Position numbers and translations under genes: made by a program. A stretch of DNA of 64,000 nt from IMG/VR virus record IMGVR_UViG_3300048854_000081, positions 286,037 to 350,036 of that record; one strand, written 5' to 3'. This DNA comes from a virus (taxonomy: Duplodnaviria; Caudoviricetes). A model generated the notes under the pieces. That model was given only the letters and a program-made list of their open reading frames with translations. It did no database searches and was not told where the DNA came from. Each line of letters starts with the position of its first letter. Within the stretch, counting starts at the first letter, position 1. Below, in pieces: positions 41,771 to 63,929 of the stretch.

Positions 41771-41915
41771 GTTGAAGATTTAAGGCCACATGATCGTGAA
41801 CGATCTATCAGTAACGACGGTTAATGGTAAAGGGATCATCGTCGTAAGAGGACCATAAGTCGTCCCGACTGACGAATTACTACATAGATGTGTAGAGGGC
41901 TGATCTTCAACACCA
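41771..41915 (+). ncRNA. unknown structured RNA ending in ACCA
   Basis: GTTGAAGAT/ATCTTCAAC closing stem plus ACCA; multiple internal hairpins; TTGACT-N18-TATTAT promoter directly upstream. Confidence 0.7.
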
Positions 41916-42260
41916 ATTGATCAAGGATTGTCAGTCACATGAACAGTCGGATCAAGTATCACCATATTGCGTGTCAGAATCAAATGGCTTACGTGCTCTA
42001 ACCAATACAATTCCATTACCGAAAGCTTCGGCAATGAATCTCTTAGGAATTATCGAATTCCCTAAGATTAACAATATGTTAAGATTAACGTATTTCGTAA
42101 TCAAACATGGCTTATCGCTGACAGAAGTATATCATCGTATAAATCGTTACACAAGTGACATTCCTTGTGGCGTTAATGATGCGTTCAATAATATAGAGTG
42201 ATTGACACATCCATTGAAATGTATTACTATCTACCCATCATATACGTATGGAGTAGCATC

Positions 42261-42470
42261 ATGCTTGCCGACTATCTAATTGCTCGTCTATTTGTCACTG
42301 TTGGTGGCGCAGGTTTCCTTCTCCTTGTCCTTCTTGGTGGTGCTGCCATGACCTTTATGGCATGGGGATTCCTTGCTTTAATCGTTTATGTGTTGGTAGT
42401 ATGGGGCATTCTCTACTTGCTGGCACTGGCTCTGATCAGTTGGCTCAAGAAGAACGCACGCTTCAAGTAA
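42261..42470 (+). CDS. small membrane protein
   Basis: RBS GGAG; TTGACA-N17-TACTAT upstream. Confidence 0.55.
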   Translation: MLADYLIARLFVTVGGAGFLLLVLLGGAAMTFMAWGFLALIVYVLVVWGILYLLALALISWLKKNARFK

Positions 42471-42490
42471 ACATTACCAAGGATTTAAGT

Positions 42491-42673
42491 ATGAATGAAT
42501 ACGTTGTTTGTTACAGATGGGAACGACGCACTACCGCTGATTTTGATCAATTGATAGAATATGTGAAATCTGAAGGCACGTCAGAGGTTGAGTCAATCAC
42601 AAAGCTATTGCTTGGGAAGTATGAAGTGAAGTATGTAGCCACGTTCTACTACGCTCGCCGAGCGCTTGACTAA
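42491..42673 (+). CDS. hypothetical protein
   Basis: RBS AAGGA. Confidence 0.55.
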   Translation: MNEYVVCYRWERRTTADFDQLIEYVKSEGTSEVESITKLLLGKYEVKYVATFYYARRALD

Positions 42674-42726
42674 TTCCATTACACCTCCTATAATATATTT
42701 CATCACATCAATACAGAGATATAAAC

Positions 42727-44913
42727 ATGATCGTCAACAATGAAGATAATGGTTCTGTCGTTTCCTCGGGTCTTGTCAGCGAAGTTGCTTTCAAGATCGA
42801 ACTAGCAGGTAAAGCGTTCAGAATGCTATCTGATGGCCTGTACACCAATAAGCAGGGCTCCATTGTGCGCGAACTGTCGTGCAACGCATTGGATTCCCAC
42901 AAGGCTGTTGGTAAGGCGGACGTTCCGTTTGAAATCCATCTTCCTTCCATCTACGAACCGACGTTCTCTGTTCGTGACTTCGGTCTCGGCATGTCTCCGG
43001 ACATGATCGAAAATACGTATGCCACCTACTTCAAGTCCACCAAGGACAACTCTAACGATGCCGTAGGTGGTTTCGGTCTCGGTGGTAAGACTCCGTTCTG
43101 CTACACCACAAGCTTCAGCATCACCTCCATTTACGAAGGTGTGAAGTATTTCTATACGGCCATGCTTGGTAACAATGGCGTGCCTGTCGTCTCCCGTTTT
43201 GGTGAGGAACCGACTGATGAAATCAATGGCGTGACCATCGAATTCAACGTTAAGGAACGCGACTATCGTCGCTTTGGCGAAGAGGTTGTAAGTCAGCTTC
43301 GCTTCTTTAACGTTAAGCCTACGCTTCTCAATAACGTTTATGATCTGGAATTCGAAAATATCGACTACCGTGAAACGTTTGGTAACTTCCGTGTGTCGGA
43401 TAGCTTGGACGGTTTGTATATCGTTCAGGGTGAGGTGGGCTACCCAGTTGATATGACGGAACTTCGGGATAAGGTATCCGACGAGAACCTTTCTCTATTC
43501 AATCTCTATACTGATGGTGCTATGTTCTTTGACATCGGCCAGATTGAGGTAACGGTGAGCCGTGAGTCGGTTCAGTTCAGCCCACTGACCATCAAGAGTC
43601 TTGAGACCTTCATTGAAACGGTTGGCCCGATCATCTATAAGAATATTCGCGAAAAGGTTCATGCCTTCTCTTGCGATTGGGATCGTCTGTCCTATCTTAA
43701 CGAATCTGAAAACAATCGTGTGTTTGCCACCCTTGCGAAGATGAAGTTCGGTGAAGGTGGTAACACGGGTGATAAAAAGCTTAAGATTGAAGGTGGTACC
43801 AAAACTCAGCCGTTCTATATCAATGCCACGAAATCTCGCGGTGGTGTTGTTGGTCGTCCTAATTTTTATGTGTCCTTCCCGGTTCCTCATAAGAATAAGC
43901 GTACCTATGCTAAGGCTGGTGACTTCACTGTGAAGCCTTCGGCTGATACGATCATCATCGTTCGCGACCAGACCAAGAGTGCCATTGCAAAGTTTTATCG
44001 ATTCGCTGATCAAAATTACGGTAAGACGGTCATGCTCATTGAATCGGAGAACACTGTAGATCAGAAGTTCTACGATTTCATTACCGAATCTTTTGGTGGT
44101 GCTCCGTTCATCAAGGCGTCGGAACTTCCTGAAACTCCTAAGTCGGGGTATCAGCGTGGTAAGCCTCCGGTTGTTTACGAAAATACCTCAACTACGTTGG
44201 TCGATAGTTCTCTGAGTTATTGGAAGAAAGTTTACGATGAAGAAGAGATTGAAACGGGTTACTATTTGACTTACACGACGTGGCCTTACATCGACGGTGA
44301 TACGTCCATTGTCAAGGCAGTGCATGATGCTGGTTTGTTCGATAAGCCGATTTATGTTATCAAGAAGGCCAAGGCTGATCTTCTGATTGACAATCCTAAC
44401 TTTGAGTGTGCCGCAAAACATGCCAAGGCGATCTTTGATGATCGTGAGAAGGATATGGATAAGCACGACCGCATGATTGAGCGTAGCCGTAAGGCTTATG
44501 CAATTCTTGATCGAGTCAGGGAAGCTCGCACTGCGTGTGGTCCGATCTGGCAGCATCGTGAACGGCTTGCTCCGCATTCTGAGCATATCAATAGCTTGAA
44601 TCGTTTGACTCGTGTAGAAAAGGTCGCAACCCGTTATACCGAAATTGTTACAAAAAAGATTAAGAAAGAAAACCGTCTGATTCGTGATATGCTTAGCCAG
44701 AAATCGATGAATAGGACTGATGACCACAGGGAACATGCTGAAAAGGTTATTTCCATTGAGGATTCGATCCGGGTTCGTGATCGTTATCCTCTGCTTGAAA
44801 CGGTTAATTACAATACAAGCTGGTTGGATGCTGAAGCAAAGCTTCGTCAAGCTGCTGCTCTTGTAGCTTACATTAAGATGGTTGACAACGTTGAAGCGCT
44901 TGGCGTAGAATGA
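42727..44913 (+). CDS. rIIA: RIIA-like protein (GHKL ATPase N-terminus)
   Basis: LY..K..SIVRELSCNALDSH, RDFGLGM, STK..SN..GGFGLGGK; followed by rIIB. Confidence 0.88.
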   Translation: MIVNNEDNGSVVSSGLVSEVAFKIELAGKAFRMLSDGLYTNKQGSIVRELSCNALDSHKAVGKADVPFEIHLPSIYEPTFSVRDFGLGMSPDMIENTYATYFKSTKDNSNDAVGGFGLGGKTPFCYTTSFSITSIYEGVKYFYTAMLGNNGVPVVSRFGEEPTDEINGVTIEFNVKERDYRRFGEEVVSQLRFFNVKPTLLNNVYDLEFENIDYRETFGNFRVSDSLDGLYIVQGEVGYPVDMTELRDKVSDENLSLFNLYTDGAMFFDIGQIEVTVSRESVQFSPLTIKSLETFIETVGPIIYKNIREKVHAFSCDWDRLSYLNESENNRVFATLAKMKFGEGGNTGDKKLKIEGGTKTQPFYINATKSRGGVVGRPNFYVSFPVPHKNKRTYAKAGDFTVKPSADTIIIVRDQTKSAIAKFYRFADQNYGKTVMLIESENTVDQKFYDFITESFGGAPFIKASELPETPKSGYQRGKPPVVYENTSTTLVDSSLSYWKKVYDEEEIETGYYLTYTTWPYIDGDTSIVKAVHDAGLFDKPIYVIKKAKADLLIDNPNFECAAKHAKAIFDDREKDMDKHDRMIERSRKAYAILDRVREARTACGPIWQHRERLAPHSEHINSLNRLTRVEKVATRYTEIVTKKIKKENRLIRDMLSQKSMNRTDDHREHAEKVISIEDSIRVRDRYPLLETVNYNTSWLDAEAKLRQAAALVAYIKMVDNVEALGVE

Positions 44914-44951
44914 GTGCTTCAAAAATATATCTATTCTCGGAGACATAAGAA

Positions 44952-45998
44952 ATGAGTAACACACCCCAAAAGCCTATCCCGTATCAGGTGAAGACTAACG
45001 GTAGCATTAACCTATTCGTAAATGGTTCAATCAAAACAATTGGTCCGGACGATCTTAACTATAAGGTCGTCCTTCAAGCCTTGAAGCGAGAGGACTGGAA
45101 TAAAGTTCTCGGTAGCCTTTCGGTTAAGGGTGCTATTGCTGATCATACCGATGGTCGCGTGGAAGTCTTCGGTGAAGAAATTCACATTGACAAGAAGCCA
45201 CTTCCTTCCGCTATTTCTAAGCGTGTAATTCCGCTTCTACGTAAGGCTGACTTCAACCTCAAGCCGCTGTTCCGTTTGCTTGAGAATATCGAAGCTAACC
45301 CGGCAGAATTCAGCCGCAATGAACTGTACCTGTTCCTTGAAGCGAATGATCTTCCGTTCACTGCCGATGGTCATTTCTTGGCTTACAAGATGGTCAGTGA
45401 AGATTATAAGGATTTGCATAGCCGTAAGATTGACAACTCCGTTGGTAACGTGGTTGAAATGCCACGTGAAGAAGTTAATCAGGATCGTGCAAAAACCTGT
45501 TCGGTGGGTCTCCATTTCTGTGCATTCAGCTATCTACCGGCCGCATACTACACGAACAATGATAGCAATCGTTTGATGGTGGTTAAGATCAATCCGGCTG
45601 ACGTGGTAAGCATTCCTAACGATTACGACAATGCGAAGGGTCGTTGCTGGCGCTATGAAGTGGTCGATGAACTGGCACACTTCGAAGATTCTCTGCCAGT
45701 TGGCTACACGGATACATACGCTGATCACATTGATGATACTGCCGAAGATGATGAGCCGGAAGTGTTGGATGATGACGAAGATGTGCTGATTACTCCTAAG
45801 AAAGCTACGGTAAGCGCAACTCCTACCAAGGCAAAGGGTGACTACTCGGCCAAGCTCGATGCTGCCAAGGTTCGCAAGATTCGTAAGCTTCTTGCTGAAG
45901 GCGACTGGACCCTAGTGGGTATCGCTGAGGTCATCGGTTGTTCGGCACGTCAGGTGGCTCGTGTACGTGATGGTGAAGTCTGGACTGACATCAAGTAA
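44952..45998 (+). CDS. rIIB: RIIB-like protein
   Basis: ELYLFL..NDLP.T.DG.FLAYK, MPR..V..D...TCS.GLHFC, V.INPADVVSIP.DY..AKGRC..YEV; C-terminal HTH. Confidence 0.9.
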   Translation: MSNTPQKPIPYQVKTNGSINLFVNGSIKTIGPDDLNYKVVLQALKREDWNKVLGSLSVKGAIADHTDGRVEVFGEEIHIDKKPLPSAISKRVIPLLRKADFNLKPLFRLLENIEANPAEFSRNELYLFLEANDLPFTADGHFLAYKMVSEDYKDLHSRKIDNSVGNVVEMPREEVNQDRAKTCSVGLHFCAFSYLPAAYYTNNDSNRLMVVKINPADVVSIPNDYDNAKGRCWRYEVVDELAHFEDSLPVGYTDTYADHIDDTAEDDEPEVLDDDEDVLITPKKATVSATPTKAKGDYSAKLDAAKVRKIRKLLAEGDWTLVGIAEVIGCSARQVARVRDGEVWTDIK

Positions 45999-46106
45999 TA
46001 GCTTGATGTTGATAAAGGGTCGGGTAATTCCGACCCTTTTATTTTGTCTGAACGTTGAAATTAATTTCACTTGACCTAGGGATCATCGTACCCTATAATT
46101 TGCAAC

Positions 46107-46532
46107 ATGATAAAGACCTACGAACTAAAGCACATTCGAAACCTCCGCAATATCGCGAAGGATTTGAATCATGGTTTGAAAAGTAAACATGCTGCGATGC
46201 TTACTGTCGGCAACAAGATTGTCAGTATGGGTGTTAACAAAGCCAAGTCGTGTCCTTTCCAGAAGCAGAATTCCAAGACTCATAAACAAACCAATCCTTT
46301 CCTTGAGTATAGTTTCATTCATGCTGAGGTCGATTGTCTGAAGGGTCTTGAAATTGATTTTAAACGCGCAACCCTGTATGTTGTGCGTACTGACTCCACT
46401 GGCAAGTTGATGGAAAGCTGCCCGTGTCAAGGTTGCAATTCTCTGATCAATAAACTCAAAATTCCACGTCTCGTCTACAGTGTCGCAGACGGTACGATTG
46501 TTGAAAATAACATTACCTATCATAAGGATTAA
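46107..46532 (+). CDS. CMP/dCMP-type Zn deaminase (substrate unknown)
   Basis: KHAA, G.N, HAEVD, CPCQGC. Confidence 0.8.
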   Translation: MIKTYELKHIRNLRNIAKDLNHGLKSKHAAMLTVGNKIVSMGVNKAKSCPFQKQNSKTHKQTNPFLEYSFIHAEVDCLKGLEIDFKRATLYVVRTDSTGKLMESCPCQGCNSLINKLKIPRLVYSVADGTIVENNITYHKD

Positions 46533-46534
46533 TC

Positions 46535-47041
46535 ATGCATTTGACCATTCGTCCTAATTCCACGTCGTTTCGTTACCTTGTTCGTTGGGATAGTGAGTTC
46601 AATCTCTATTCCTCAACCAAGGAACGCCGTGAAGAATATAAGTATCGTCAACCAAGGACATTCTGTGAATATTACCGGAAGGTTCTGGCTATCGTTGCGA
46701 TTCAGTTTTCTCTTGGAATCTGCGCAATTTCTCTTCCATTTTTCTTGGCTCTATATTTCACTGATGCTAATGTAGACGCCATGCCATGGTTCGCGGTTCT
46801 GATCAGCGGACTTGGTTTAATCCTTACATGTTTCTGTATAGTAACACCTGTCGTCCTTGGGCTGTTTTGGATCAAGGATAAGTTTTTCTCATGGAAGGAA
46901 GCCAAGCGTCGCGCTGCATATCTTGCTAAGCATGCTGATGGTGCTAATTATGTCGAGCCAACGCCGGGATTCATGAAAACGCTTTACTTCGGTTTGAAGA
47001 GCAAGGTGTGTCCGATCATTGTAATTACGGACGAAGCGTGA
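46535..47041 (+). CDS. membrane protein
   Basis: Two TM helices; FCEYYR; K.KVCP. Confidence 0.65.
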   Translation: MHLTIRPNSTSFRYLVRWDSEFNLYSSTKERREEYKYRQPRTFCEYYRKVLAIVAIQFSLGICAISLPFFLALYFTDANVDAMPWFAVLISGLGLILTCFCIVTPVVLGLFWIKDKFFSWKEAKRRAAYLAKHADGANYVEPTPGFMKTLYFGLKSKVCPIIVITDEA

Positions 47042-47652
47042 TTAAGCTTTACACTCCAATGAATGTGAAGCCGTGGACTATCCACGGCTTCGCCGTTGCC
47101 TGCTCAGGTGGTTACGATAGTATGGCTATTGCTCACTTTCTGGTGAGAGGTGGTCACAAGCCTCATATCATCCACGTCAATCATGGTACAGGTAATGACT
47201 CCGCAGAAGCCGTTGTACGGCGTTTCACGGAGAAACATGGTCTGACCCTAACCGTGCATCAAGTTAACCCTAAGGATAAGCCTGAGAGAGAATCATGGGA
47301 GGAATTCTGGCGTAACGAGCGTATCAAGGTCTATCGTGCCAATAAACAGCCTGTGATCACTGGTCACAATCTGGATGACGCCATGGAAACATGGCTCTTC
47401 AGTTCCATGCACGGTAATTGTAAGTTAATTCCATACAACACGCGTAACACCTATCGCCCCTTCATCCTGAACCGAAAGAGTGCCCTTCTTGATTATGCAA
47501 TCAAGAACGGTGTAGAATGGGCTGAAGACAAGTCGAATGGTGATGTGAATTTCTCACGGAATCGTATTCGACACAACATCATGCCCGAAGCCCTGTTTAT
47601 TAATCCGGGGTTTGCTAAGGTAATATCCAAAAAATATCTAAACCAATTTTAG
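47038..47652 (+). CDS. tilS: tRNA(Ile)-lysidine synthetase, minimal PP-loop form
   Basis: ACSGGYDS, HVNHG, R..R, TGHNLDD.MET, RP, ED.SN..FSRNRIRH. Confidence 0.85.
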   Translation: MIKLYTPMNVKPWTIHGFAVACSGGYDSMAIAHFLVRGGHKPHIIHVNHGTGNDSAEAVVRRFTEKHGLTLTVHQVNPKDKPERESWEEFWRNERIKVYRANKQPVITGHNLDDAMETWLFSSMHGNCKLIPYNTRNTYRPFILNRKSALLDYAIKNGVEWAEDKSNGDVNFSRNRIRHNIMPEALFINPGFAKVISKKYLNQF

Positions 47653-47660
47653 GACATTAT

Positions 47661-47993: not shown

Positions 47994-48004
47994 TAGAGAC
48001 CATT

Positions 48005-49160: not shown

Positions 49161-49163
49161 GCC

Positions 49164-50356: not shown

Positions 50357-50424
50357 GCATTTTGTTTAAAGAGTTGACAAAATTACTAGATAGTGTAAAC
50401 TTCTATAAATAGATTTACAAAATT

Positions 50425-50508
50425 GGGCGAGTGGTGGAACGGTAGACGCACCACGCTTAGAACGTGGCGCCGTAAGGTGTGTGGGTTCGAATCCCACCTT
50501 GCCCACCA
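50425..50508 (+). tRNA. tRNA-Leu(TAG)
   Basis: Cloverleaf, CCACG-ctTAGaa-CGTGG, long V arm, GTTCGAATC, CCA. Confidence 0.93.
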
Positions 50509-50521
50509 ATTTTTATAATGT

Positions 50522-50603
50522 GCGAATGTGGTGGAACGGTATACACGGCAGTCTTAGAAACTGTTGCTTCGGCTTGAGAGTTCGAATCTCTCCATTCGTA
50601 CCA
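50522..50603 (+). tRNA. tRNA-Leu(TAG), second copy
   Basis: GCAGT-ctTAGaa-ACTGT, GTTCGAATC, ACCA. Confidence 0.9.
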
Positions 50604-50621
50604 GATTTTAGTAATACCTCG

Positions 50622-50697
50622 CGGGAGGTGGCGGAACTATTATACGCGGAAGGTCGCTCCTTCTTTTTGTAGGTGAAAGTCCTACCCTGCCCGACCA
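50622..50697 (+). ncRNA. tRNA-like RNA with 5-nt anticodon loop
   Basis: Bulged acceptor CGGGAGG/CCT(G)CCCG plus ACCA; GAAGG-tcgct-CCTTC; T arm GTAGG-tgaaagt-CCTAC. Confidence 0.7.
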
Positions 50698-50710
50698 AAT
50701 TATTAGTTTT

Positions 50711-50797
50711 GCCGCTATGATGGAATTGGTAGTCATGGCTGATTCAAAATCAGTTGCCTTAAAAAGCGTCCCGGTTCGACTCCGGGTAGCGGTACCA
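50711..50797 (+). tRNA. tRNA-Leu(CAA)
   Basis: GCTGA-ttCAAaa-TCAGT, GTTCGACTC, ACCA. Confidence 0.92.
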
Positions 50798-50803
50798 AAT
50801 TAT

Positions 50804-50886
50804 GGGCTTGTGGGGGAATTGGCAGACCCGGCAGACTTAAAATCTGTTTCGCAAGAGTGTCGGTTCGATCCCGACCAAGCCTACCA
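50804..50886 (+). tRNA. tRNA-Leu(TAA)
   Basis: GCAGA-ctTAAaa-TCTGT, GTTCGATCC, ACCA. Confidence 0.92.
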
Positions 50887-50891
50887 AATAA

Positions 50892-50979
50892 CCCCGTGTT
50901 GAGCAGTTGGATGGCTCGGAAGGCTACGAACCTTCTTTCAGAAATGATCTTGCACGTTCGAATCGTGTCACGGGGTCCA
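50892..50979 (+). tRNA. tRNA-Arg(ACG) with long variable region
   Basis: CCCCGTG/CACGGGG, GAAGG-ctACGaa-CCTTC, GTTCGAATC, CCA. Confidence 0.85.
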
Positions 50980-50996
50980 AATAAAAAAGGCTGGAA

Positions 50997-51764
50997 TTAT
51001 TTTCCAGCCTTTTTCTTTGCCCAATAACCACGAGGTGGTTTTTTGATTCCTAGGGATTTGCATTTCTTTCCTATAGCAGAATCAGTTACACCCAGCTTTT
51101 TTCCTATCTCTACCGAACTCATTTCCCATACTAAAATTTCTAATTCTTCTTTTGAAATTTCTAATTTTCTAGTCCTTGAACATTCTATCGAACAATAGAT
51201 ATTGTCATGAGTTTTGGCGCGAATGACAATTTTATTACACTTGGCGCAGTTATGTTCTTTTATTTTAGATAATTTATTTTTTATGGACTTATCTTGCTTC
51301 TTATTTCGGCCCGCATATGTAGAAGTCTGAGAATGACAATTTGGGCATAGTAAAATTAGATTAGTTAAACTATTATTAAATTTATTTCCGTCCATGTGTT
51401 CTAGTTGTAATACTAGAGGCTTATCCTTCCACATACTTAGTCCACAGTTATCTCCATAACATTTATATTCAAGATAACCATCATTTAGTAAACGTTTTTT
51501 CAGCATAGTAGATGATGAATAATGTATTTTATTACTTAATATATCTTCTATGTCTCTTTTAGCACATCTAGTGGTTCTATGTGCTTGGTGGAAATGTGAG
51601 ACATCTATGTTATAATGTTTAATTCTCAATTTTAATGTGGTGTACATATTTCTTGAATCTGACATGTTAAGGCGTCTTAGACACTCAGCATAAGAAAATG
51701 ATGATCTGACAGCTTCCTTTAATTCGTTTTCAGTATATGTGTGATAATGTGTATGTGATGACAT
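50997..51764 (-). CDS. HNH homing endonuclease
   Basis: LQLEH.DG..NN...NL..LCPNCHSQT; C-terminal KPPRGYW; AT-rich. Confidence 0.88.
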   Translation of the reverse strand: MSSHTHYHTYTENELKEAVRSSFSYAECLRRLNMSDSRNMYTTLKLRIKHYNIDVSHFHQAHRTTRCAKRDIEDILSNKIHYSSSTMLKKRLLNDGYLEYKCYGDNCGLSMWKDKPLVLQLEHMDGNKFNNSLTNLILLCPNCHSQTSTYAGRNKKQDKSIKNKLSKIKEHNCAKCNKIVIRAKTHDNIYCSIECSRTRKLEISKEELEILVWEMSSVEIGKKLGVTDSAIGKKCKSLGIKKPPRGYWAKKKAGK

Positions 51765-54713: not shown

Positions 54714-55157
54714 ATGTCACTCAAGCAAGAAATCACTGCCCAGCGCATCACGGCTCTCAAGGCCAAGGATAGCTACCGCAGTCAGACCATTTCCCTGATC
54801 CTCGCCGCTGTGAAGCAGGTTGAGGTGGATACTCGTGTCGAACTTGATGACAATGGCGTTCTGACTGTCCTGAACAAGATGGTCAAGCAGCGCTTGGATT
54901 CCATCAGCCAGTTCAACGCCGCTGGGCGTACTGACCTTTCCGATGTTGAGGAAGCCGAAGTCAAGCTTATTAAGGAATTCCTCCCTGAGCAGGCTTCTGA
55001 GGAAGTCGTGAACGCGGTGGTAGCCAAGGCTATCGAAACCGTTGGCTCGACCTCTGTGAAGGATATGGGCAAGATCGTGGCCCTTGTGAAGCTGGAACTG
55101 ACCGGTCGTGCTGACATGGGCAAGGTTTCTCAGCTTATCAAAAGCAAGCTTTCCTAA
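54714..55157 (+). CDS. GatB/YqeY domain protein
   Basis: ALKAKD, K..EVD, KMVKQR.DSI.QF..AGR.DL..E..E, FLP.Q, KDMGK, GRADM. Confidence 0.92.
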   Translation: MSLKQEITAQRITALKAKDSYRSQTISLILAAVKQVEVDTRVELDDNGVLTVLNKMVKQRLDSISQFNAAGRTDLSDVEEAEVKLIKEFLPEQASEEVVNAVVAKAIETVGSTSVKDMGKIVALVKLELTGRADMGKVSQLIKSKLS

Positions 55158-56855: not shown

Positions 56856-56929
56856 TCCGTCGGAATCGAATGAGTAATAATGGGGCTAGTGTTTATACCT
56901 AGCCCCTTTCTTTTGAATATAGGAAAATT

Positions 56930-57121: not shown

Positions 57122-57178
57122 CGTGTTGCATTGTGCTAACCGTTGAAGTATAATTCGATCATCACAGAGGACAATGCT

Positions 57179-57717: not shown

Positions 57718-57720
57718 TTC

Positions 57721-58080: not shown

Positions 58081-58089
58081 GGAAATAAT

Positions 58090-58515: not shown

Positions 58516-58584
58516 GTAACAATTTAATAGCTTGACAGAGGGAGTGTAATATATTACACTCCCTCTAACTTTTTGGAGAATACC

Positions 58585-59055
58585 ATGCCTGTTAATATGG
58601 TTGATTGGGTTGAAACTTTCTTTGATGCTGTAGGGCAGCATGGTCCGGAAGAATCGGAATGCATGTACATGTTACGCAGTACCGTTGACGACGGGCTGAA
58701 GTTTCGTGGTCGTCATATTTTGGTCTATACCCTTCCAGAATTCTCCAAGTTTCTTAAGAGTGATGAGGAACTAACTGACTTCATCTACGTACGTTGCACA
58801 CAGAGTGTGATTGTAAACATTCGCGGAACGTCATTGACTCATGAAACGCTGGTATCTCAGATCATGACCTGTATCAATGATCATTTGGACGGGTTCGATT
58901 ACGATGAGAATGCTGCCATTTTCCAAAAGGAACATGGGTTTGTGCTCTCTTCGGTTCGCGGCTATGGTCCTCCCAGCATTTACATAGGAGAAGACTTTGT
59001 GTTCTCTCCGGCTGAAAAGCTTGTCTTTAGCAAATTCAATTTTCGACGGGTTTAA
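58585..59055 (+). CDS. hypothetical protein
   Basis: RBS GGAG; promoter upstream. Confidence 0.6.
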   Translation: MPVNMVDWVETFFDAVGQHGPEESECMYMLRSTVDDGLKFRGRHILVYTLPEFSKFLKSDEELTDFIYVRCTQSVIVNIRGTSLTHETLVSQIMTCINDHLDGFDYDENAAIFQKEHGFVLSSVRGYGPPSIYIGEDFVFSPAEKLVFSKFNFRRV

Positions 59056-59115
59056 GCCTAGGGTTGACGGGTGCTATGCAATGCATTACACTGTCTATCT
59101 ACTTGAGGGATTGTG

Positions 59116-59577
59116 ATGGATACTGAACTGATCTACATATTATTCGATGTCTATCGTTATGTGACGAAAGAAGCCGATCCTGATAATCGATGGAGTGGTG
59201 AAGATACCGATGCTAATGTGTCGTTCAAGTCGGTGCATCGTCATATGCCGAAGAACACATCTTCTTATGAAGAAATGTATCCATGCTTCCCAATGGAATA
59301 TGACAAGACCTACTTCGTTGTGTGGGCAGAATTTTCGACGGGTGATTCATTTAGTAACTCTGGTGGTCATTACGAAGTCATTGATGTATTCTTGGATGAA
59401 TCTTTGGCCGAGAAATGTGCTCACAATGCTGAGCACGAAATGAAAGAAGAAAATTGGTTAAAGTTCTACACCTACGAACGCCAGAACGGCGAAGTTATTC
59501 GCCAAAGCTGCCCTTGGGCTGGTTATTTTAACAGTTTGGATGATGTTCGTGTTGAATCCTTCAGACTAGAATATTAA
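59116..59577 (+). CDS. hypothetical protein
   Basis: STGDSF, PW.GYF..L motif. Confidence 0.65.
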   Translation: MDTELIYILFDVYRYVTKEADPDNRWSGEDTDANVSFKSVHRHMPKNTSSYEEMYPCFPMEYDKTYFVVWAEFSTGDSFSNSGGHYEVIDVFLDESLAEKCAHNAEHEMKEENWLKFYTYERQNGEVIRQSCPWAGYFNSLDDVRVESFRLEY

Positions 59578-59588
59578 GGAATAATAAA

Positions 59589-60602
59589 ATGCAGAAATTT
59601 ACTTCCATTGAATCGTTCAAGCACATCGTTGCTAACGTTCGCAAGTATTACAACAAGGTCGGCAAGCCGTTTCCGACGCTGACCTATACCGGTCGCGTGA
59701 AGCTGCATGGCACCAATGCTGGTGTGCGTCGTACGCCTAGCGGCCAGATCATTCCACAGTCGCGCGAGCGCATCATTGATGTGACTTCGGATAACAACGG
59801 CTTTGCTTTCTTTGTGGAAACTAACAAGGAAGCGATTGCTAAGCTTTTCGAAGGTTACCCACAGGATGAAACCGTTACGCTTTACGGTGAATGGTGTGGT
59901 GGTAGCATCCAGAAGGGTGTGGCCCTGAACAATGTGCCTAAGCATTGGGTTCTGTTTGCTGCCAAGCTTGGCGTGAAGGCTGAAGATGATATTGATATGC
60001 CGCCTGAATCGTTCTACACGGACGTTCCGGCTGATCTTCATGACAATGCCCATGGTATCTACAACATCGCTCAGATTCCTTCTTACGAAGTCACCATTGA
60101 CTTCCTTTCGCCTGAGCCAGCATCGGTTATCCTTTCGGAACTGACGCTTGCCGTGGAAGAAGAATGCCCATGGGGTAAGCTGATGTTTGATGTTTCGGGT
60201 ATCGGCGAAGGTATCGTGTGGCGTGCGAATGAGTATCCCAACATGTCGCGTCTCTGGTTCAAGACCAAGGGTCTGCTACACAAGGGTAACGACAAGACCA
60301 AGCAGCCGAAGATTGAAATCGATGACAAGCAGCTTGCTTCTATTAAGGAACTGGTTGAGAAGATTCTGACCCAAGGTCCATCGGGTCGGCTTGAACAGGG
60401 TCTTTCGTACCTGCGTGAGAACAACCATGAACTGACGACTCATTCCACAGGTGTCTACCTGAAGTGGGTTGCTGGGGATATCCTTAAGGAAGAACTGGGC
60501 ACCATCGCGGCCAGCGGTTTCGATTGGAAGCGCGTTCAGGGTCAGGTTATGCAGGTTGCACGTCAGTACTTTCTCACTGCTATTGATAAGGAGTTTGTAT
60601 AA
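59589..60602 (+). CDS. RNA ligase (Rnl2-like)
   Basis: KLHGTN (motif I), QSR, YGEWCG..IQKGV, GEGIVW, FKTKG; helical C-domain. Confidence 0.85.
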   Translation: MQKFTSIESFKHIVANVRKYYNKVGKPFPTLTYTGRVKLHGTNAGVRRTPSGQIIPQSRERIIDVTSDNNGFAFFVETNKEAIAKLFEGYPQDETVTLYGEWCGGSIQKGVALNNVPKHWVLFAAKLGVKAEDDIDMPPESFYTDVPADLHDNAHGIYNIAQIPSYEVTIDFLSPEPASVILSELTLAVEEECPWGKLMFDVSGIGEGIVWRANEYPNMSRLWFKTKGLLHKGNDKTKQPKIEIDDKQLASIKELVEKILTQGPSGRLEQGLSYLRENNHELTTHSTGVYLKWVAGDILKEELGTIAASGFDWKRVQGQVMQVARQYFLTAIDKEFV

Positions 60603-61081
60603 TGGGTGCCTACGTCACAGTTAAGTTGGATTACTTCCTTACCATTAAGCCACAGGCGAGGAATTTCCAAGAATTAAAAATTAAGTGTGCTAATGGTCAT
60701 GATCGTGATCGTAGCTCTGATGCGGCATTTTGTACGCAATGTGGTGAGAAGTTTGCGCCAGTTACGGTCGAAGTTACCAAATCAGTTGACTACTTTCAGG
60801 GATTCATTCAGGATATTCCGGAGCTTGAGGCTTTTGATGGTCTAGCTTGGGCTCCGGCATATCGTGCAAATAACACCTTCTTTGTCATTGATATTACAAC
60901 TACAGAGAAGAAAGCTGAAGACCTTGACATTAATCGTGGATTTGTCGTGACTGACATCGAAAAGCCACCGATGAGTTGGACGGCAGAACAGACCATGACT
61001 GATTTCATCACCAAGTTTAAGCGAGTGTATGGCGAGGATTCCATTAAATTGGAATATGGGTTATACTCATACTGTAACTAA
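60602..61081 (+). CDS. hypothetical protein with Zn ribbon
   Basis: CANGH...FCTQCG. Confidence 0.6.
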   Translation: MGAYVTVKLDYFLTIKPQARNFQELKIKCANGHDRDRSSDAAFCTQCGEKFAPVTVEVTKSVDYFQGFIQDIPELEAFDGLAWAPAYRANNTFFVIDITTTEKKAEDLDINRGFVVTDIEKPPMSWTAEQTMTDFITKFKRVYGEDSIKLEYGLYSYCN

Positions 61082-61095
61082 CATCGGAGAACGTT

Positions 61096-61566
61096 ATGAA
61101 AGATAAGCTGAGTGAGAATCAAATTAAAAACAAGCTTGCTCGGCTCCGCTTTTATCACGGTCCTGAGGATATGAATCTGTCTGACAGAGAGTTGGCAAGG
61201 GTGTCCAAGCATCAGAGCGAGGAACTTGACGATTTTGATGGTAAGACTGTCTTGGATGTTATTGAAACATTGAAGCATTACCTGAAGTATGATGCTATCG
61301 TTAGTGTGGGTACTACCGGTAGCGATTACTACAATAATAGGAATGTCGAGATTTGCGTGGAATGGCGTCGTCCTGAGACGGACGAAGAGTATGCAGATCG
61401 GATTCAATACATGAAAGAGAATGCATACAAAAGCTGGAAGGGTGAGTACGATAGCCTACAAAAGCAATTGGAACAGGCTAGGAAAGATGCCATTGCCGAA
61501 CGTGACCTTGAAGAATTGTCACTGAAGCGTTTGGCAAAGAAACTGGGATATAAATTAGAAAAATGA
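61096..61566 (+). CDS. hypothetical protein
   Basis: RPETDEEY..R, coiled coil. Confidence 0.65.
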   Translation: MKDKLSENQIKNKLARLRFYHGPEDMNLSDRELARVSKHQSEELDDFDGKTVLDVIETLKHYLKYDAIVSVGTTGSDYYNNRNVEICVEWRRPETDEEYADRIQYMKENAYKSWKGEYDSLQKQLEQARKDAIAERDLEELSLKRLAKKLGYKLEK

Positions 61567-61886
61567 TAGTACCTGAATTTGTTAAGGACTTCTGCCGGGA
61601 GCAATTCCGGCGGAAGGGTTTCATTAGAGTTGCCGTCGATTCCTATAGAGATAAAGAGTTCACAAGCTTTGTCAAGTCCACAGGTCTTAATTTTGATTAT
61701 GATCTATGTTTCCATGGAACAGAAGGTGTTACGATCAGTTTGGATAGTTACATTAACAGAGTCTTGACTTATGCTCCACATCACGTTAAGATTATGATTA
61801 ATGGAGTGTTACTGACGAACATTCGACAGAAAGCATTACCACCTCCGGCAAAGACTCCGGAACTTATAGATTTGACGAATACCTAA
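61563..61886 (+). CDS. hypothetical protein
   Basis: ATGA coupling. Confidence 0.55.
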   Translation: MIVPEFVKDFCREQFRRKGFIRVAVDSYRDKEFTSFVKSTGLNFDYDLCFHGTEGVTISLDSYINRVLTYAPHHVKIMINGVLLTNIRQKALPPPAKTPELIDLTNT

Positions 61887-61894
61887 GGAATTAT

Positions 61895-62083
61895 ATGAAC
61901 ATTGCTCGTCTGTTGACCGTTGTGGTCGCAGTGCTTATTTTGGCATCGCTGATACTGATAAATGTGTTGGTTACACTACCTTCATTTATTCATGTTATAC
62001 TGACACTAGTTTTCGCTGTGACTCTAGCTGCGTTTCTAGGAACCGCTGGTAAGCCACGTTGGATTGAACCCTTCGAATTGTGA
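61895..62083 (+). CDS. small two-TM protein
   Basis: Hydrophobic; RBS AAGGA. Confidence 0.55.
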   Translation: MNIARLLTVVVAVLILASLILINVLVTLPSFIHVILTLVFAVTLAAFLGTAGKPRWIEPFEL

Positions 62084-62092
62084 GTACACACC

Positions 62093-62359
62093 ATGCTTCC
62101 GGAATACGTCAAACTCTTACAAGCTGACAGCAAGTACTACGCCTTAGTAGGCGACATGCTGCGCGACATCTGTAAGGACGACAACCTTCCGACCAAGCTA
62201 GCGGTAGCACGGATCGACAAGTGTCGTCAGGATACGCTTACTTGGCAGGCGAACTTGTCAAAGACCGATCCTGAGTACAATGATAGATTCAACATTCTGG
62301 AAGGCTTCCTTAAGTTTTTCGATATCGTTGAAGTCATCGTTCAGATTGACGAAGACTAA
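62093..62359 (+). CDS. hypothetical protein
   Basis: Operon-packed ORF. Confidence 0.6.
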   Translation: MLPEYVKLLQADSKYYALVGDMLRDICKDDNLPTKLAVARIDKCRQDTLTWQANLSKTDPEYNDRFNILEGFLKFFDIVEVIVQIDED

Positions 62360-62375
62360 CATAAATAGATTTCAT

Positions 62376-62451
62376 GCGGGTGTAGCTCAGTTGGTAGAGC
62401 ACTATCCTTCCAAGTTAGATGTCGCGGGTTCGAATCCCGTCGCCCGCTCCA
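62376..62451 (+). tRNA. tRNA-Gly(TCC)
   Basis: GCGGGTG acceptor, ctTCCaa loop, GGTTCGAATCC, TCCA; CATAAATA upstream. Confidence 0.95.
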
Positions 62452-62459
62452 ATTTCGTA

Positions 62460-62600
62460 AGTCAAAATGCGTAGCTGATGCGCTGGTAGACCGGTTAGTG
62501 ACCGGGCAGCACCAGACGGTGCCGTATAGAAATATACGAGTCGAAGCCAAGGGTAACCAGTTCCCTCGTGTCGGAATTATTCAGTACCGACTTGACTCAA
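62460..62600 (+). ncRNA. unknown multibranch structured RNA downstream of tRNA-Gly
   Basis: AGTCAA/TTGACT, CTGGT/ACCAG, CCGGT/ACCGG, GCACC/GGTGC, CGTATA-gaaa-TATACG, GTCGG/CCGAC. Confidence 0.6.
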
Positions 62601-62626
62601 CTTTTAATTTTACACGACACCATTCC

Positions 62627-62947
62627 ATGTTAGAATCGGACGTCCTAAGTTACCAAATCCTACATTACCCATTACGAAATATTGAAATCATAACTAGGTA
62701 TCGTAGTGGCGTTACAGAGTCCATTAAAAATGTGAATGATTCTATAACTGGTGAAAGGTGGATGAAGGGAGAAATTACTGGATTAGAAGACAGTCCAATA
62801 ATTGGTGGTCGTCGAATATTTAAATATAAAAATATGTTAATGATAACCCACGAGTCATTCAATAATTTTCTAGCTAAAATTGAAGATTTCTATAGTATGC
62901 CTATTGAGGAAATTTCCTTGGGATTACTGACTTACGTAACAGATTGA
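62627..62947 (+). CDS. hypothetical protein
   Basis: ATG 62627; upstream part of the 62498 ORF overlaps the structured RNA. Confidence 0.5.
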   Translation: MLESDVLSYQILHYPLRNIEIITRYRSGVTESIKNVNDSITGERWMKGEITGLEDSPIIGGRRIFKYKNMLMITHESFNNFLAKIEDFYSMPIEEISLGLLTYVTD

Positions 62948-62956
62948 GAGGACTTC

Positions 62957-63208
62957 ATGGAATATTCAGAAGCAGTTGCATTAATCCGAAAGAATCCATA
63001 TAATCTGAGTCTGATTCCAGTTGAGTTGATTGACCTGAAATTGGTTAGATTCGTCAGGAAACTTAATGTGTGGGCAGTAGTAGCTTATGCGCCCAAACAT
63101 ATTAATAAGATTTGGCTTCATGTTGTGCTTGATCACACGATTAAATTTACATTTATCGATATTGACAACGATGGATGGAAATGTGAATATGAAGACTACA
63201 AAGTATAA
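62957..63208 (+). CDS. hypothetical protein
   Basis: RBS GAGGA. Confidence 0.55.
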   Translation: MEYSEAVALIRKNPYNLSLIPVELIDLKLVRFVRKLNVWAVVAYAPKHINKIWLHVVLDHTIKFTFIDIDNDGWKCEYEDYKV

Positions 63209-63230
63209 CAAACCATTTTAGGATAATACA

Positions 63231-63563
63231 GTGGAATATCTAAAGACGCTTTTCTCTTTTGCTCAAAACAACGTTCTATATTTCTATTTTCTACCGCTTG
63301 TAGTTTCACTAGTAGCGTTCATTGCAACATCCTTTACTGAATACAAGGAAGATGTGGAAGCTCGTGAAGCAGCGAATCAGGATACGAAAAAATTCTATAT
63401 CCCGAAGATTAAACTTGGTACACTAGTTGGCCGTGCCATCATTGCAGCCTTACCTTTTGTTAATATTGGTTCTGCCTTGTACAAGTCGTTCTTCATTGCG
63501 AGAGATATTAAGGATGCAGCCGAAAAGGCTCTTGATATTCCATTGGTTCCGAATAAGAAGTAA
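63231..63563 (+). CDS. membrane protein
   Basis: TM helices; RBS AGGA. Confidence 0.6.
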   Translation: MEYLKTLFSFAQNNVLYFYFLPLVVSLVAFIATSFTEYKEDVEAREAANQDTKKFYIPKIKLGTLVGRAIIAALPFVNIGSALYKSFFIARDIKDAAEKALDIPLVPNKK

Positions 63564-63567
63564 AGTT

Positions 63568-63848
63568 TTATTTACGGGATAAAAACGAAGCCTGCGAAGG
63601 TTACCGGAGACATCTAGGGACATAGCCGCTAAGTCTAATCCCGTAAATAATCCTTACATCGTGCCCATGAGTCTGAATGTTTCCGGTGGTATCATTCAGG
63701 TTGACATGATGTAAGTTAGGGACCACCAATGACGTTGCTTATAAAGAACGTTGATGCTAGAATAGCTTCTAGCACGATCACATAGTGCAGTAGTGGTATA
63801 TGACGTGGCGTTTCGTTATATATCCGACATTATGTGAATGAAACGCCA
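63568..63848 (+). ncRNA. block of structured, pseudoknot-rich RNA(s)
   Basis: No ORF; several 8-13 bp helices with G-U pairs (see findings). Confidence 0.6.
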
Positions 63849-63856
63849 AAGTTTCC

Positions 63857-63929
63857 GGCCTGATAGTATAGATATTAGAATACCCACCCCGAGTGGGAGA
63901 CTGTGGAGAATAACCACATCAGGCCACCA
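63857..63929 (+). ncRNA. tRNA-like RNA with 5-nt anticodon loop
   Basis: GGCCTGA/TCAGGCC plus ACCA; GTAT/ATAC D arm; CCAC-cccga-GTGG; TGTGG-agaataa-CCACA. Confidence 0.7.

Follow-up and report, generated by a model that had tools for sequence, protein, structure and literature searches.

Some phage tRNAs evade tRNA-targeting toxins through changes in the anticodon loop, among them mycobacteriophage tRNAs and the T5 tRNAs that face PARIS and retron effectors. Non-canonical elbows are found in tRNA-Pyl and in animal mitochondrial tRNAs, armless ones among them (cf. 10.64898/2026.06.12.731814). The tRNA gene cluster of phage T4 holds stable non-tRNA RNAs, RNAC and RNAD (species 1 and 2), whose function is still unknown (PMC9697503), and bacterial Y RNAs (YrlA) occur together with the Ro/TROVE protein in some jumbo phages (PMC7824862).

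The RNAs described here share features with each of these. Like RNAC and RNAD, they are small phage-encoded non-tRNA RNAs inside a tRNA gene region; they are set apart by description, as cloverleaves with a closed five-nucleotide loop and a re-coded elbow, belonging to families found in multiple jumbo phages and with many per genome. Like the toxin-evading tRNAs, they are variants changed exactly where host nucleases attack, but those tRNAs retain a seven-nucleotide loop and decode, whereas the present RNAs have a closed loop of free sequence. With the non-canonical-elbow tRNAs they have in common the loss of G18G19 and T-Psi-C and, in one relative (L077:8440-8497), of a whole arm; tRNA-Pyl and the mitochondrial tRNAs, unlike the present RNAs, decode and are not phage-borne. 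As tRNA-mimicking non-coding RNAs tied to RNA repair genes they recall YrlA, but they have no Rfam match and another architecture, and no TROVE protein was found in the genome with PF05731, a search in which control models did match.

The window, by which we mean the whole 64,000-nucleotide stretch analysed, makes up the final 64 kb of a jumbo-phage record that is 350,036 bp long and whose contig ends overlap. ARAGORN finds 41 tRNAs genome-wide, including all six canonical tRNAs that a preliminary description of the window had listed; Rfam recovers five of the six, the one missed being tRNA-Arg(ACG) (50892-50979), with its 16-nt variable region. The same description proposed that several further elements are tRNA mimics unable to decode normally. 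The elements and the genes around them are as follows.

41735..41764, + strand: sigma70-like promoter TTGACT-18-TATTAT, 7 nt 5' of E1 (a consensus match only)
41771..41915, + strand: E1, a 145-nt stem-closed orphan RNA ending in ACCA, with a 10-bp terminal helix
50374..50401, + strand: promoter-like site of the Leu/Arg tRNA operon, with motif TAAATAGATT next to it at 50406-50416
50425..50979, + strand: tRNA operon of Leu(UAG) twice, E2, Leu(CAA), Leu(UAA) and Arg(ACG), CCA encoded in all
50622..50697, + strand: E2, a tRNA-Leu-derived look-alike ending in ACCA, its acceptor stem bulged, its T-loop UGAAAGU and its D loop lacking GG
62376..62451, + strand: tRNA-Gly(UCC), with motif TAAATAGATT 5' of the gene; E3 starts 8 nt after it
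62460..62600, + strand: E3, a stem-closed RNA of tRNA-like topology without CCA (z -2.7)
62609..62636, + strand: promoter-like site after E3, TTTACA-16-TAGAAT plus TG (L078 2379-2406)
63568..63650, + strand: E4a, a predicted RNA closed by a 13-bp stem (z -4.1)
63653..63728, + strand: E4, a long hairpin (z -2.3, 5/200 shuffles as good)
63857..63929, + strand: E5, cloverleaf and founder of the R1 family, with the 5-nt loop CCCGA, an ACCA end, T-loop AGAAUAA and no GG in the D loop
63935..64000, + strand: 5' part of E6, the whole element lying at genome 129-322 (L078:3705-3899)
genome 329-407 (L028:209-287): E7, an R1 member past the window end, after E6

The look-alike RNAs are placed within tRNA operons at tRNA-like gaps of 5-18 nt; E2 is flanked by tRNA-Leu genes and the gaps among E5, E6 and E7 are 5-6 nt. 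CCA is encoded in the DNA for 40 of the 41 phage tRNAs, and likewise for E1, E2, E5, E6 and E7. This shared operon position and encoded CCA make processing by the tRNA pathway reasonable to expect, and the look-alikes are probably matured as tRNAs are. A putative intrinsic terminator behind the Leu/Arg operon, at about 50985-51015, was read by eye and is not listed by the terminator scan. Megablast of window positions 41000-64000 against the phage collection gave no match, and ARAGORN -m found no tmRNA, with its tRNA-like domain and tag reading frame, genome-wide.

The R1 cloverleaf family, to which E5 and E7 belong, occurs in at least four related phages. In 1.2 Mb searched, model R1 gave no false matches: besides E5 and E7 it picked out two members in contig L077 and three in G006, a relative of 174 kb. 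It found no member in G001, the closest complete relative. The family is marked by the T-loop AGRAUWM, a D loop without GG and an encoded NCCA. A five-nucleotide loop of unconserved sequence is present in six of the seven core members, that is, in all six full-length ones, and its length is constant despite completely different stems of 4-8 bp, while L077:8440-8497 is a relative without the anticodon-position arm. In the eight-row alignment (A4) 95.7% of the cells are paired and 17 of 21 pairs have changed on both sides, counts that are somewhat inflated by the fitting of the alignment to the model; none of 500 shuffles reaches this pairing level and slid controls give 35-51%. The cloverleaf is thus kept across phages through compensatory changes, and the covariation sought among homologues from related phages proves strong for this family. 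Moreover, its conservation equals that of real tRNAs: E5 is 76.6% identical to its G006 counterpart, and real tRNA orthologues of the two phages are 60-97% identical. With its cloverleaf, ACCA, five-nucleotide loop, covarying family and folding energy (z -4.15 vs shuffles), E5 bears out its description as a tRNA-like element that cannot decode normally.

E2 had likewise been described as tRNA-shaped, and we confirm this. Its acceptor stem has 7 bp with one bulged G and is followed by discriminator A and CCA, its anticodon loop is replaced by a 6-bp hairpin with the five-nucleotide loop UCGCU, and it can be aligned to the adjacent tRNA-Leu genes. Homologues are found in two other phages (L067:1310-1414(-) and L077:5002-5107); the 17-nt T arm is identical across the three phages and the acceptor stem of the family is preserved through one substitution and one insertion. 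The loops of the two orthologues are 7 nt and 8 nt long, and the folding energy of E2 is unexceptional (z -0.75, no better than shuffles). The element of which the preliminary description saw only the start, at 63935, could be completed: E6 continues over the overlapping contig ends to genome position 322, where it ends in GCCA. It is 194 nt long, a tRNA body whose D loop is expanded by an insert of ~120 nt; it has the six-nucleotide loop UUAACU and a canonical T arm, which it shares with a paralogue at genome 61668-61842. The insert was considered as a group I intron and this was rejected: there is no Rfam match on L028, and the insert, at ~120 nt, lies in the D loop and not in the anticodon loop.

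Like canonical tRNAs (RF00005), these RNAs have an acceptor stem, D, anticodon-position and T arms, a discriminator with CCA and a position in tRNA operons. In E5, E7 and their relatives, and in E2 with its one acceptor bulge, the cloverleaf has an acceptor stem of 7 bp stacked on a T arm of 5 bp and ends in NCCA. Unlike canonical tRNAs, none has a seven-nucleotide anticodon loop with U33. The loop has five nucleotides in E2, E5, E7 and the G006 and L077 members (one of which is armless), closed by a hairpin cut down to 4-8 bp, and six in E6, and U33 is mostly absent. At the elbow, D-loop GG and T-loop UC occur together in 39 real tRNAs and both are missing from E2, E5 and E7, in which the two partners are altered jointly, the GG being gone and T-loop positions 55-56 reading GA for UC; E6 keeps G18G19 and U55C56. 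Searched against Rfam including RF00005, which has a gathering threshold of 29 bits and which real tRNAs of the phage match with 50-70 bits, E1-E7 gave no match even at E<=5, so that none of the elements falls in an Rfam family. It is highly probable that E2, E5/E7 and E6 are real, conserved, tRNA-derived RNAs that do not decode, and for these several elements the R1 covariation, the E2 homologues and the closed loops bear out the original proposal. Two observations temper it. The R1 T-loop type is also carried by apparently decoding relatives, tRNA-Trp(CCA) and tRNA-Asp(GUC) in L081 and a member with a UUA anticodon in Stenotrophomonas phage RAS14, so the unusual elbow alone does not signify a mimic. 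Furthermore, were the closing C-G pair opened, five of the seven loops would read C-N-NNN-A-G, a seven-nucleotide loop with A37 and an Arg, Lys or Glu anticodon, which makes residual decoding or recognition by an aminoacyl-tRNA synthetase possible.

The elements do not constitute one system, as had been suggested, but fall into at least four unrelated classes. One conserved RNA, E3, stands apart from the look-alikes: it has a tRNA-like topology and no CCA, in agreement with its initial description as a structured RNA. Its closing helix encloses a 5' hairpin with loop GCUGA and, beyond a variable core, a 3' hairpin that abuts this helix and has the loop AAnnUUCAGUA; the two hairpin loops are mutually complementary (CUGA/UCAG). 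Its paralogue E8 spans genome 988-1098, and another phage has a relative at L077:4536-4636; these two show 100% pairing with six compensatory pairs, and model R2, built from them, scores E3 at 19.8 bits (E ~1e-4 in 2.5 kb). The promoter-like site downstream of E3 indicates that E3 belongs to the tRNA-Gly transcript and is not the leader of the next gene. In G006 and L077 a stem-closed RNA lies immediately 5' of tRNA-Gly, behind motif TAAATAGATTT. A self-cleaving ribozyme (hammerhead or HDV-like), for which we looked for a family-model match or a catalytic core such as CUGANGA ... GAAA, was rejected as an identity for E3: no Rfam model matched, and L077 has CUGAUU where E3 and E8 have CUGAUG.

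For E1 and E4 the evidence is that of folding energy, and both are unproven. E1 has the 10-bp helix and ACCA ascribed to it and folds better on the + strand (z -3.6) than on the - strand (z -1.8), but in five genomes neither DNA searches nor synteny nor a covariance model built on the single sequence turned up a homologue. By our estimate chance alone would yield, on each strand, a few Watson-Crick helices as long as that of E1 with NCCA behind them, and with G-U pairs allowed shuffles give 91-117 such sites per strand. Sigma70-like sites such as the one 5' of E1 number 2 in the region vs 2.1 expected. A small ORF comes next (ATG at 41939), and E1 may act as its leader. E4 is a long hairpin, as described, but its end is not acceptor-like, because the CCA sits 10 nt past the helix.

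The window also encodes most of the RNA maturation and repair toolkit attributed to it.

4049..4546, + strand: P-loop kinase (AAA_33)
6750-7352: second HAD/NT5C gene
11414..12448, + strand: RNA ligase (PF09414)
13699..14874, + strand: CCA-adding-type nucleotidyltransferase, PolyA_pol head plus RNA-binding domain
14855..15451, + strand: HAD phosphatase
46107..46532, + strand: Zn deaminase of CDA fold, located ~4.4 kb 5' of tRNA-Arg(ACG) and for that position called TadA-like
47008..47652, + strand: PP-loop ATPase, TilS-like
54714..55157, + strand: YqeY-domain protein (158 bits)
59589..60602, + strand: RNA ligase, Rnl2-like

The two RNA ligases, CCA enzyme, TilS-like protein, deaminase, YqeY protein, two HADs and kinase are thus present; the 2H phosphoesterases also named were not matched by PF13563, the one model tried. 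G001 and G006 have homologues of both the YqeY and the RNA-ligase gene, and the order from the ligase to tRNA-Gly(UCC) recurs there too. Textbook substrates of TadA-type deaminases and TilS are tRNA-Arg(ACG) and tRNA(CAU); a real tRNA-Arg(ACG) follows ~3-4 kb downstream of the TilS-like gene and of the deaminase gene, for which we infer a TadA-type substrate, and tRNA(CAU) genes exist in the genome. Jumbo phages, moreover, commonly carry sets of RNA ligase, kinase, phosphatase and CCA enzyme (PMC7824862). With real tRNA substrates nearby and such sets common, ordinary phage tRNAs account well enough for the toolkit, and its link to the look-alike RNAs is only circumstantial.

The R1 and E2 families are plainly tRNA-derived, the tRNA islands hold many aberrant forms (armless versions of 54-58 nt and tRNA bodies without CCA) and E2 folds no better than shuffles, as might be seen if the look-alikes were decaying pseudogenes, duplicates that have lost the anticodon loop and are neutrally retained. 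This is quite unlikely given that all four helices are held by compensatory changes, that the five-nucleotide loop recurs in independent members whose stems are unrelated, that T arms are identical or nearly so between phages with proteins only ~60-70% identical, and that conservation matches real tRNAs. We consider it very unlikely that they are unusual working tRNAs for sense or stop decoding, in which the closing pair opens or the ligases, kinase and phosphatases remodel the loop and inserts. The five R1-type and G001 loops, so read, lack U33, although that of E2 has it; stems of 4-8 bp would put the anticodon at differing distances from the acceptor end, and one member is armless; and the E2 orthologues are unequal in loop length. 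Such decoding would agree with the opened Arg, Lys or Glu loops, with relatives of the same T-loop type that have 7-8-nt loops and UUA or UCA anticodons or resemble ordinary Trp and Asp tRNAs, and with the amber-suppressor tRNAs of the genome, one of which has an altered elbow. Splicing would also be needed for the 30-60-nt inserts found at the anticodon loop of other tRNAs in these phages, but no splicing endonuclease was identified.

For E1 and E4 the likeliest reading is that the tRNA-shaped modules are processing or stability signals, which recruit RNase P and 3' exonucleases for the cleavage of long operon transcripts and protect neighbouring RNA or mRNA ends: E1 begins 7 nt past a promoter and is followed by a small ORF, and E4a and E4 stand between an ORF and the E5 cluster. 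The stem-closed RNA 5' of tRNA-Gly in G006 and L077 is also in keeping with it. For the look-alikes as a whole it is unlikely, as RNA-only arrays need no punctuation and the T-loops AGAAUAA and UGAAAGU are conserved though RNase P recognition does not demand it. There is little probability, finally, that they serve a phage enzyme as carriers or cofactors, whether as amino-acid donors charged by an anticodon-independent synthetase or as ligands of YqeY, the CCA-adding enzyme or a peptidyl-tRNA-hydrolase-like protein. The conserved half is that of acceptor stem, T arm and CCA, and the phage has YqeY and the CCA enzyme, but R1 members are without the Ala (G3-U70) or Ser (long variable arm) identity elements, and G001 has the proteins yet no R1 RNA.

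Our best explanation as a whole, inferred mode of action included, is a tentative one, that E2, E5/E7 and E6 are non-decoding tRNA paralogues that titrate proteins. A role as decoys for anticodon nucleases such as PrrC, as first suggested, fits poorly because the anticodon loop is precisely what is lost; the conserved part of the R1 RNAs is the acceptor stem, T arm and CCA, and the loop at the anticodon position is shrunk, variable and, in one relative, absent. Binding through the acceptor end or the tRNA body is, on the sequences, more likely. RNase P cleavage and 3' trimming would release the look-alikes as they do the neighbouring tRNAs, the RNAs would take an L shape with a re-coded elbow, and the closed loop without U33 would exclude them from the ribosomal A site. 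Acceptor-end toxins exist and act in phage defence (10.1101/2021.04.30.441581; 10.1101/2022.05.30.493996; PMC7450476). The step of toxin titration, taken by itself, is doubtful; if it occurs, the look-alikes would occupy proteins that recognise tRNAs by their body or their acceptor/CCA end, and their likeliest targets, ahead of anticodon nucleases, would be host tRNA-directed defence toxins that act at the 3' end, such as toxSAS/CapRel pyrophosphokinases and MenT/AbiE nucleotidyltransferases.

The window is the final 64,000 bases of the 350,036-bp record. The two ends of the record duplicate each other over ~195 bases (window 63806-64000 and genome 1-196), apart from an additional T in a T-run (GTTTTGGG vs GTTTTTGGG), and the record is therefore a circularly closed assembly whose end repeat is the overlap of a circular or permuted genome. 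In L078, a second assembly of the same phage (349,971 bp, 99.97% identity), the junction is intact in one piece. IMG/VR rates the record as 100% complete and labels it 'linear'. In what follows, genome coordinates refer to the whole record.

Candidate RNA elements (window coordinates unless stated otherwise)
E1, 41771-41915: 10-bp terminal helix followed by ACCA, 7 nt past a TTGACT-18-TATTAT site
E2, 50622-50697: between two tRNA-Leu genes; 7-bp acceptor stem with one bulged G, A-CCA end
E3, 62460-62600: starts 8 nt after tRNA-Gly; no CCA; promoter-like site downstream
63568-63650: separate stem-closed element (13 bp), just upstream of E4
E4, 63653-63728: long hairpin, with a CCA 10 nt past the helix
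E5, 63857-63929: 73-nt cloverleaf, A-CCA, T-loop AGAAUAA, no GG, 5-nt loop CCCGA; z -4.15
E6, from window 63935, genome 129 onward: 194 nt, perfect acceptor stem, G-CCA, canonical T arm
E7, genome 329-407: E5-like cloverleaf six bases after E6; 7-bp stem, 5-nt loop AGCGC
E8, genome 988-1098: paralogue of E3, with a relative at L077:4536-4636

The preliminary description had grouped six helical elements, most with an encoded NCCA end. Among these, E2, E5 and E6 are tRNA-shaped with CCA, and E1 has the helix and ACCA; E4 dropped out as acceptor-like, since the distance of its CCA from the helix makes the resemblance weak. E3 is structured and lacks CCA, as had been described. Rfam placed none of the elements in a characterised family, either at gathering score or at E<=5. 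Megablast of window 41000-64000 against the phage collection gave no match. Three related phage sequences were available for comparison: G001, a complete 340-kb relative found through protein-guided searches and syntenic with window 32.7-63.6 kb at ~40-75% protein identity; G006, a 174-kb partial relative reached through a search with the E5 T-arm pattern; and L077, a 21.9-kb contig reached through a protein neighbour.

Covariation among homologues, on which the earlier proposal of tRNA-mimic RNAs would depend, is seen in the E5 family. The covariance model R1 takes E5, E7 and a tandem pair from G006 as its seed. Run against 1.2 Mb of related genomes plus further loci, it recovered a third G006 member, the L077 orthologue of that member and a 58-nt form in L077 with no anticodon-position arm at all; the sole additional match was a weak one to a tRNA-Glu. 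In the 8-row R1 alignment, 95.7% of cells are in standard pairs and both sides have changed in 17 of 21 pairs, values that favour the structure because the alignment was fitted to the model, but the margin is nonetheless large: 0 of 500 shuffles were as good, and sliding the partner by 1-3 columns reduced pairing to 35-51%. E5 is 76.6% identical to its closest G006 counterpart, and real tRNA orthologues of these two phages are 60-97% identical. The anticodon-position stems (4-8 bp) are entirely different among the six full-length core members, and all six have a 5-nt loop (CCCGA, AGCGC, ACUCA, GCUUA and, twice, AUCGA). When E2 and a G001 look-alike are counted, five of seven 5-nt loops have a C-G closing pair and a final A. 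Opened, those five would become C-N-NNN-A-G: the anticodons would be those of Arg, Lys or Glu and A37 would be present; the stems would be of unequal length and U33 would be missing. This pattern is best read as a trace of tRNA origin, and leaves a small chance that anticodon-reading synthetases or nucleases recognise the RNAs. The 58-nt L077 form (L077:8440-8497) stands in tandem with another miniature tRNA-shaped RNA of ~54 nt (L077:8505-8560); the two, made up of an acceptor stem, a single hairpin, a T arm and ACCA, recall armless mitochondrial tRNAs.

E2 has a D arm without GG, the T-loop UGAAAGU and, in place of the anticodon arm, a 6-bp hairpin with the 5-nt loop UCGCU; its 5' part can be aligned to the neighbouring tRNA-Leu genes. 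Homologues are found in G006 and L077 beside tRNA-Arg and tRNA-Ser, the 17-nt T arm being identical in all three copies. E2 preserves the acceptor stem through a substitution on one strand and a C inserted in the opposite one. A long variable arm is still present in the G006 and L077 copies, one of which has a 7-nt loop and the other an 8-nt loop. U55C56 in the T loop goes together with the D-loop GG, the partners that meet at the elbow, in 39 tRNAs of this genome. E2, E5 and E7 have neither, positions 55-56 being GA, and both are likewise missing from one of two amber-suppressor tRNAs. The elbow partners appear to have changed in concert, with U19-A56 possibly replacing G19-C56, and these RNAs have therefore probably retained, not lost, the L shape. 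Watson-Crick kissing of the D and T loops was also considered for the R1 family and was rejected as inconsistent from member to member.

An exact-pattern scan with the R1 T arm found G006 only in the viral collection, and G006 and one 5.9-kb contig in the metagenome collection. This contig (L081, VFSW01039676.1, 16 tRNAs) includes a clear member of R1 whose 8-nt loop, CUUCAAAA, contains UCA, and its seemingly ordinary tRNA-Trp(CCA) and tRNA-Asp(GUC) have T-loops of the AGNRUWA type. Several apparent decoders on L081, these two included, have AGCAUUA or AGCGUAA as T-loop and no GG in the D loop. They represent an entire tRNA lineage with a re-coded elbow. The cultured Stenotrophomonas phage RAS14 (319 kb) has an unannotated R1 match of 56.8 bits beside an annotated tRNA-Gly:

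OP752703.1 302428-302502 (L085:1501-1575), minus strand: R1-type tRNA with the 7-nt loop UUUUACU and anticodon UUA, ochre-suppressor-like

The L081 and RAS14 members point to the unusual T arm as the mark of a phage tRNA lineage that probably includes decoders and suppressor-like members, with the 5-nt-loop forms as a derived subset.

E6 has ~120 nt of extra structure between its D-stem strands and a 6-nt 'anticodon' loop. Its paralogue at genome 61668-61842 shares the T arm, differs in acceptor stem and insert, and lacks CCA. When all elements were compared with the genome by BLAST, no sequence-level paralogues were found except for the T arm common to E6 and genome 61811-61832. The surrounding region, genome 61437-61842, lies outside the window and has, in order, a promoter, a ~140-nt stem-closed RNA, an aberrant cloverleaf (T-loop CGCAAAC) and an insert-bearing tRNA body (insert ~100 nt, without CCA); the E5 cluster likewise combines aberrant cloverleaves with an insert-bearing tRNA body.

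The promoter-like site that follows E3 places this RNA in the tRNA transcript and not in the leader of the next gene. Its paralogue E8 and the L077 relative are paired at 27 of 27 positions of the drawn structure, with six compensatory pairs, and a model of these two (R2) scores E3 at 19.8 bits with filters off; searched against five genomes, R2 found no more members. E3 aligns to the model in two hairpins, the 5' one with loop GCUGA and the 3' one with loop AAnnUUCAGUA, and in the UGG just after the first; the core differs. The topology is tRNA-like: a hairpin begins three bases inside the closing helix, a variable core follows, and the final hairpin sits directly against the helix. CUGA/UCAG complementarity between the loops is invariant across all three copies, and covariation is therefore uninformative here; such a pairing would stand in for the elbow contact. 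A hammerhead was considered for E3 and for the G001 spacer, and was rejected because there is no Rfam match and the core is unconserved. Three phages have another conserved ncRNA, of ~100 nt, immediately 5' of tRNA or mimic genes (genome 1288-1392, L028:1168-1272; L067:1583-1688(-); L077:4645-4750). Its motif is GGUUAGCUC ... AAAGCACUGUCAG, compensatory changes are seen in its closing helix, and RNAalifold gives double changes at 6 pairs.

E1 folds better than its own shuffles (z -3.6; opposite strand -1.8). A 9-bp helix followed by NCCA, with G-U allowed, occurs 182 and 143 times on the two strands vs 91-117 in shuffles, and we estimate ~3 per strand by chance with Watson-Crick pairs alone; E1 therefore cannot be argued from its helix and NCCA. 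A DNA search of five relatives gave matches at chance level only, the syntenic gap in G001 has no counterpart, and a single-sequence E1 model (R3) found only E1 itself in G000, G001, G006, RAS14 and Xoo-sp13. E1 and E4 are plausible as structured RNAs by their folding, and equally so as leader or trailer structures. The small gene upstream of E1 (window 41391-41681) has a precomputed PF00166 (Cpn10/GroES) domain, from which its product is predicted to be a phage co-chaperonin; a protein-database search found no relatives besides itself.

ARAGORN confirmed the six canonical tRNAs of the window. In the whole genome it found 41, of which 40 have a genomically encoded CCA, and the Rfam tRNA model gave 42 matches; ARAGORN's intron options returned only long 'introns' that we judged spurious. 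ARAGORN found no tmRNA in this genome and predicted a tmRNA-like gene in G001 (89769-90200; L047:9769-10200). Two CUA-anticodon tRNAs, amber suppressors labelled 'Pyl' by ARAGORN, stand in tandem at genome 26819-26975 on the minus strand (L005:1418-1574), and one, with T-loop CGCAAAU and no D-loop GG, resembles the mimics. The tRNA-Arg(ACG) at window 50892-50979 has an unusual 16-nt variable region and was called by ARAGORN and missed by the Rfam tRNA model. Structured inserts of ~30-60 nt, far below group I intron size, are found at or beside the anticodon loop of tRNA genes at genome 204985-205113 (L030:1501-1629) and 7990-8129, and in G001 at 181704-181809 (L052:1704-1809). At a distance of 5-10 nt, the motif TAAATAGAT(T) precedes tRNA and ncRNA 5' ends (window 50406-50416 and 62362-62372; genome 49646, 201423 and 212945); it is similar to the late promoter of T4, TATAAATA. 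It occurs seven times on the + strand, five of them ahead of tRNA operons, and once on the - strand, and is also present in G001, G006 and L077.

tRNA toolkit genes (window coordinates)
4049-4546: AAA_33 kinase
11414-12448 and 59589-60602: two RNA ligases
13699-14874: CCA-adding-type nucleotidyltransferase
46107-46532: Zn deaminase
47008-47652: PP-loop TilS-like protein
54714-55157: YqeY

Two HAD phosphatases and one metallophosphoesterase are also encoded in the window. The toolkit thus holds up as first described, from the CCA-adding type to the HADs, except for the 2H phosphoesterases, for which the single model searched, PF13563, gave no match. PHROGs assigned no function to the ORFs that flank the ligases. 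The genome lacks a Ro/TROVE protein, and the idea of a Y RNA was dropped on that ground. The deaminase has a CDA fold, and its gene lies ~4.4 kb upstream of tRNA-Arg(ACG), in which it could make inosine-34. The obvious ordinary substrates of the deaminase and the TilS-like protein are the phage's own tRNA-Arg(ACG) and tRNA(CAU). Comparable gene sets are common among jumbo phages (PMC7824862). Toolkit and mimics co-occur, yet co-occurrence gives no tie between them.

The mimics have kept the acceptor stem, T arm, CCA and cloverleaf and have discarded the anticodon loop. Retention of the acceptor/T-arm half with loss of this loop argues that they would be matured like tRNAs, stay out of decoding and act through the tRNA body or the 3' end; beyond the anatomy, we infer every step of the mechanism. 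The loss also speaks against substrate-like decoys of nucleases for which the anticodon loop is the site read, and so against the anticodon-nuclease form of the toxin decoy first suggested. We rank first the possibility that the mimics titrate host toxins acting on the tRNA 3' end (toxSAS/CapRel, MenT). toxSAS/CapRel are reported to pyrophosphorylate the tRNA CCA and MenT to add nucleotides, both as toxins that take part in phage defence (10.1101/2021.04.30.441581, 10.1101/2024.07.05.602228, 10.1101/2022.05.30.493996, PMC7450476). A tentative proposal, to which we give a rather low probability, is that jumbo phages of this group maintain dedicated 'loop-closed' tRNA mimics, purposely non-translating, as sinks or inhibitors of immune effectors or as orthogonal carriers for a phage enzyme. 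Such RNAs would be L-shaped; their acceptor/CCA end would be authentic, their elbow re-coded and their anticodon tip blunted, and the effectors would be those of the host that attack the tRNA 3' end or body.

That the mimics are pseudogenes is unlikely because of the covariation. They might instead be unusual decoders, against which the unequal loops of the G006 and L077 copies of E2 argue, or processing signals or enzyme cofactors, and all three remain as rivals. In a second, bolder reading, the short inserts and odd loops would be remodelled by the phage's ligase, kinase and phosphatase set. If the ~30-60 nt inserts are removed, these enzymes could serve for splicing and not for repair alone, and remodelling would mean that a phage has its own protein-catalysed pathway of tRNA splicing or editing.

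Stable RNAs of unknown function in phage tRNA clusters, such as RNAC and RNAD of T4, have been known for about fifty years. These two RNAs of the T4 tRNA region, described as being of unknown function (PMC9697503), are the closest precedent; what differs here is that the loop-closed tRNA look-alikes of jumbo phages form multi-member families backed by covariation. A genome holds several members, the covariation is clear, and the simple design that they share narrows the possible purpose. Standard tRNA finders and Rfam overlook this whole layer of tRNA-derived genes in jumbo phages, and the RAS14 match gives an entry point in a cultured phage, though its member has a 7-nt loop. If the reading as loop-closed mimics is true, it would be an RNA-based counter-defence not described before; if the mimics do titrate toxins directed at tRNA, they would be anti-defence molecules of a new kind and would predict the part of the tRNA that such toxins recognise.
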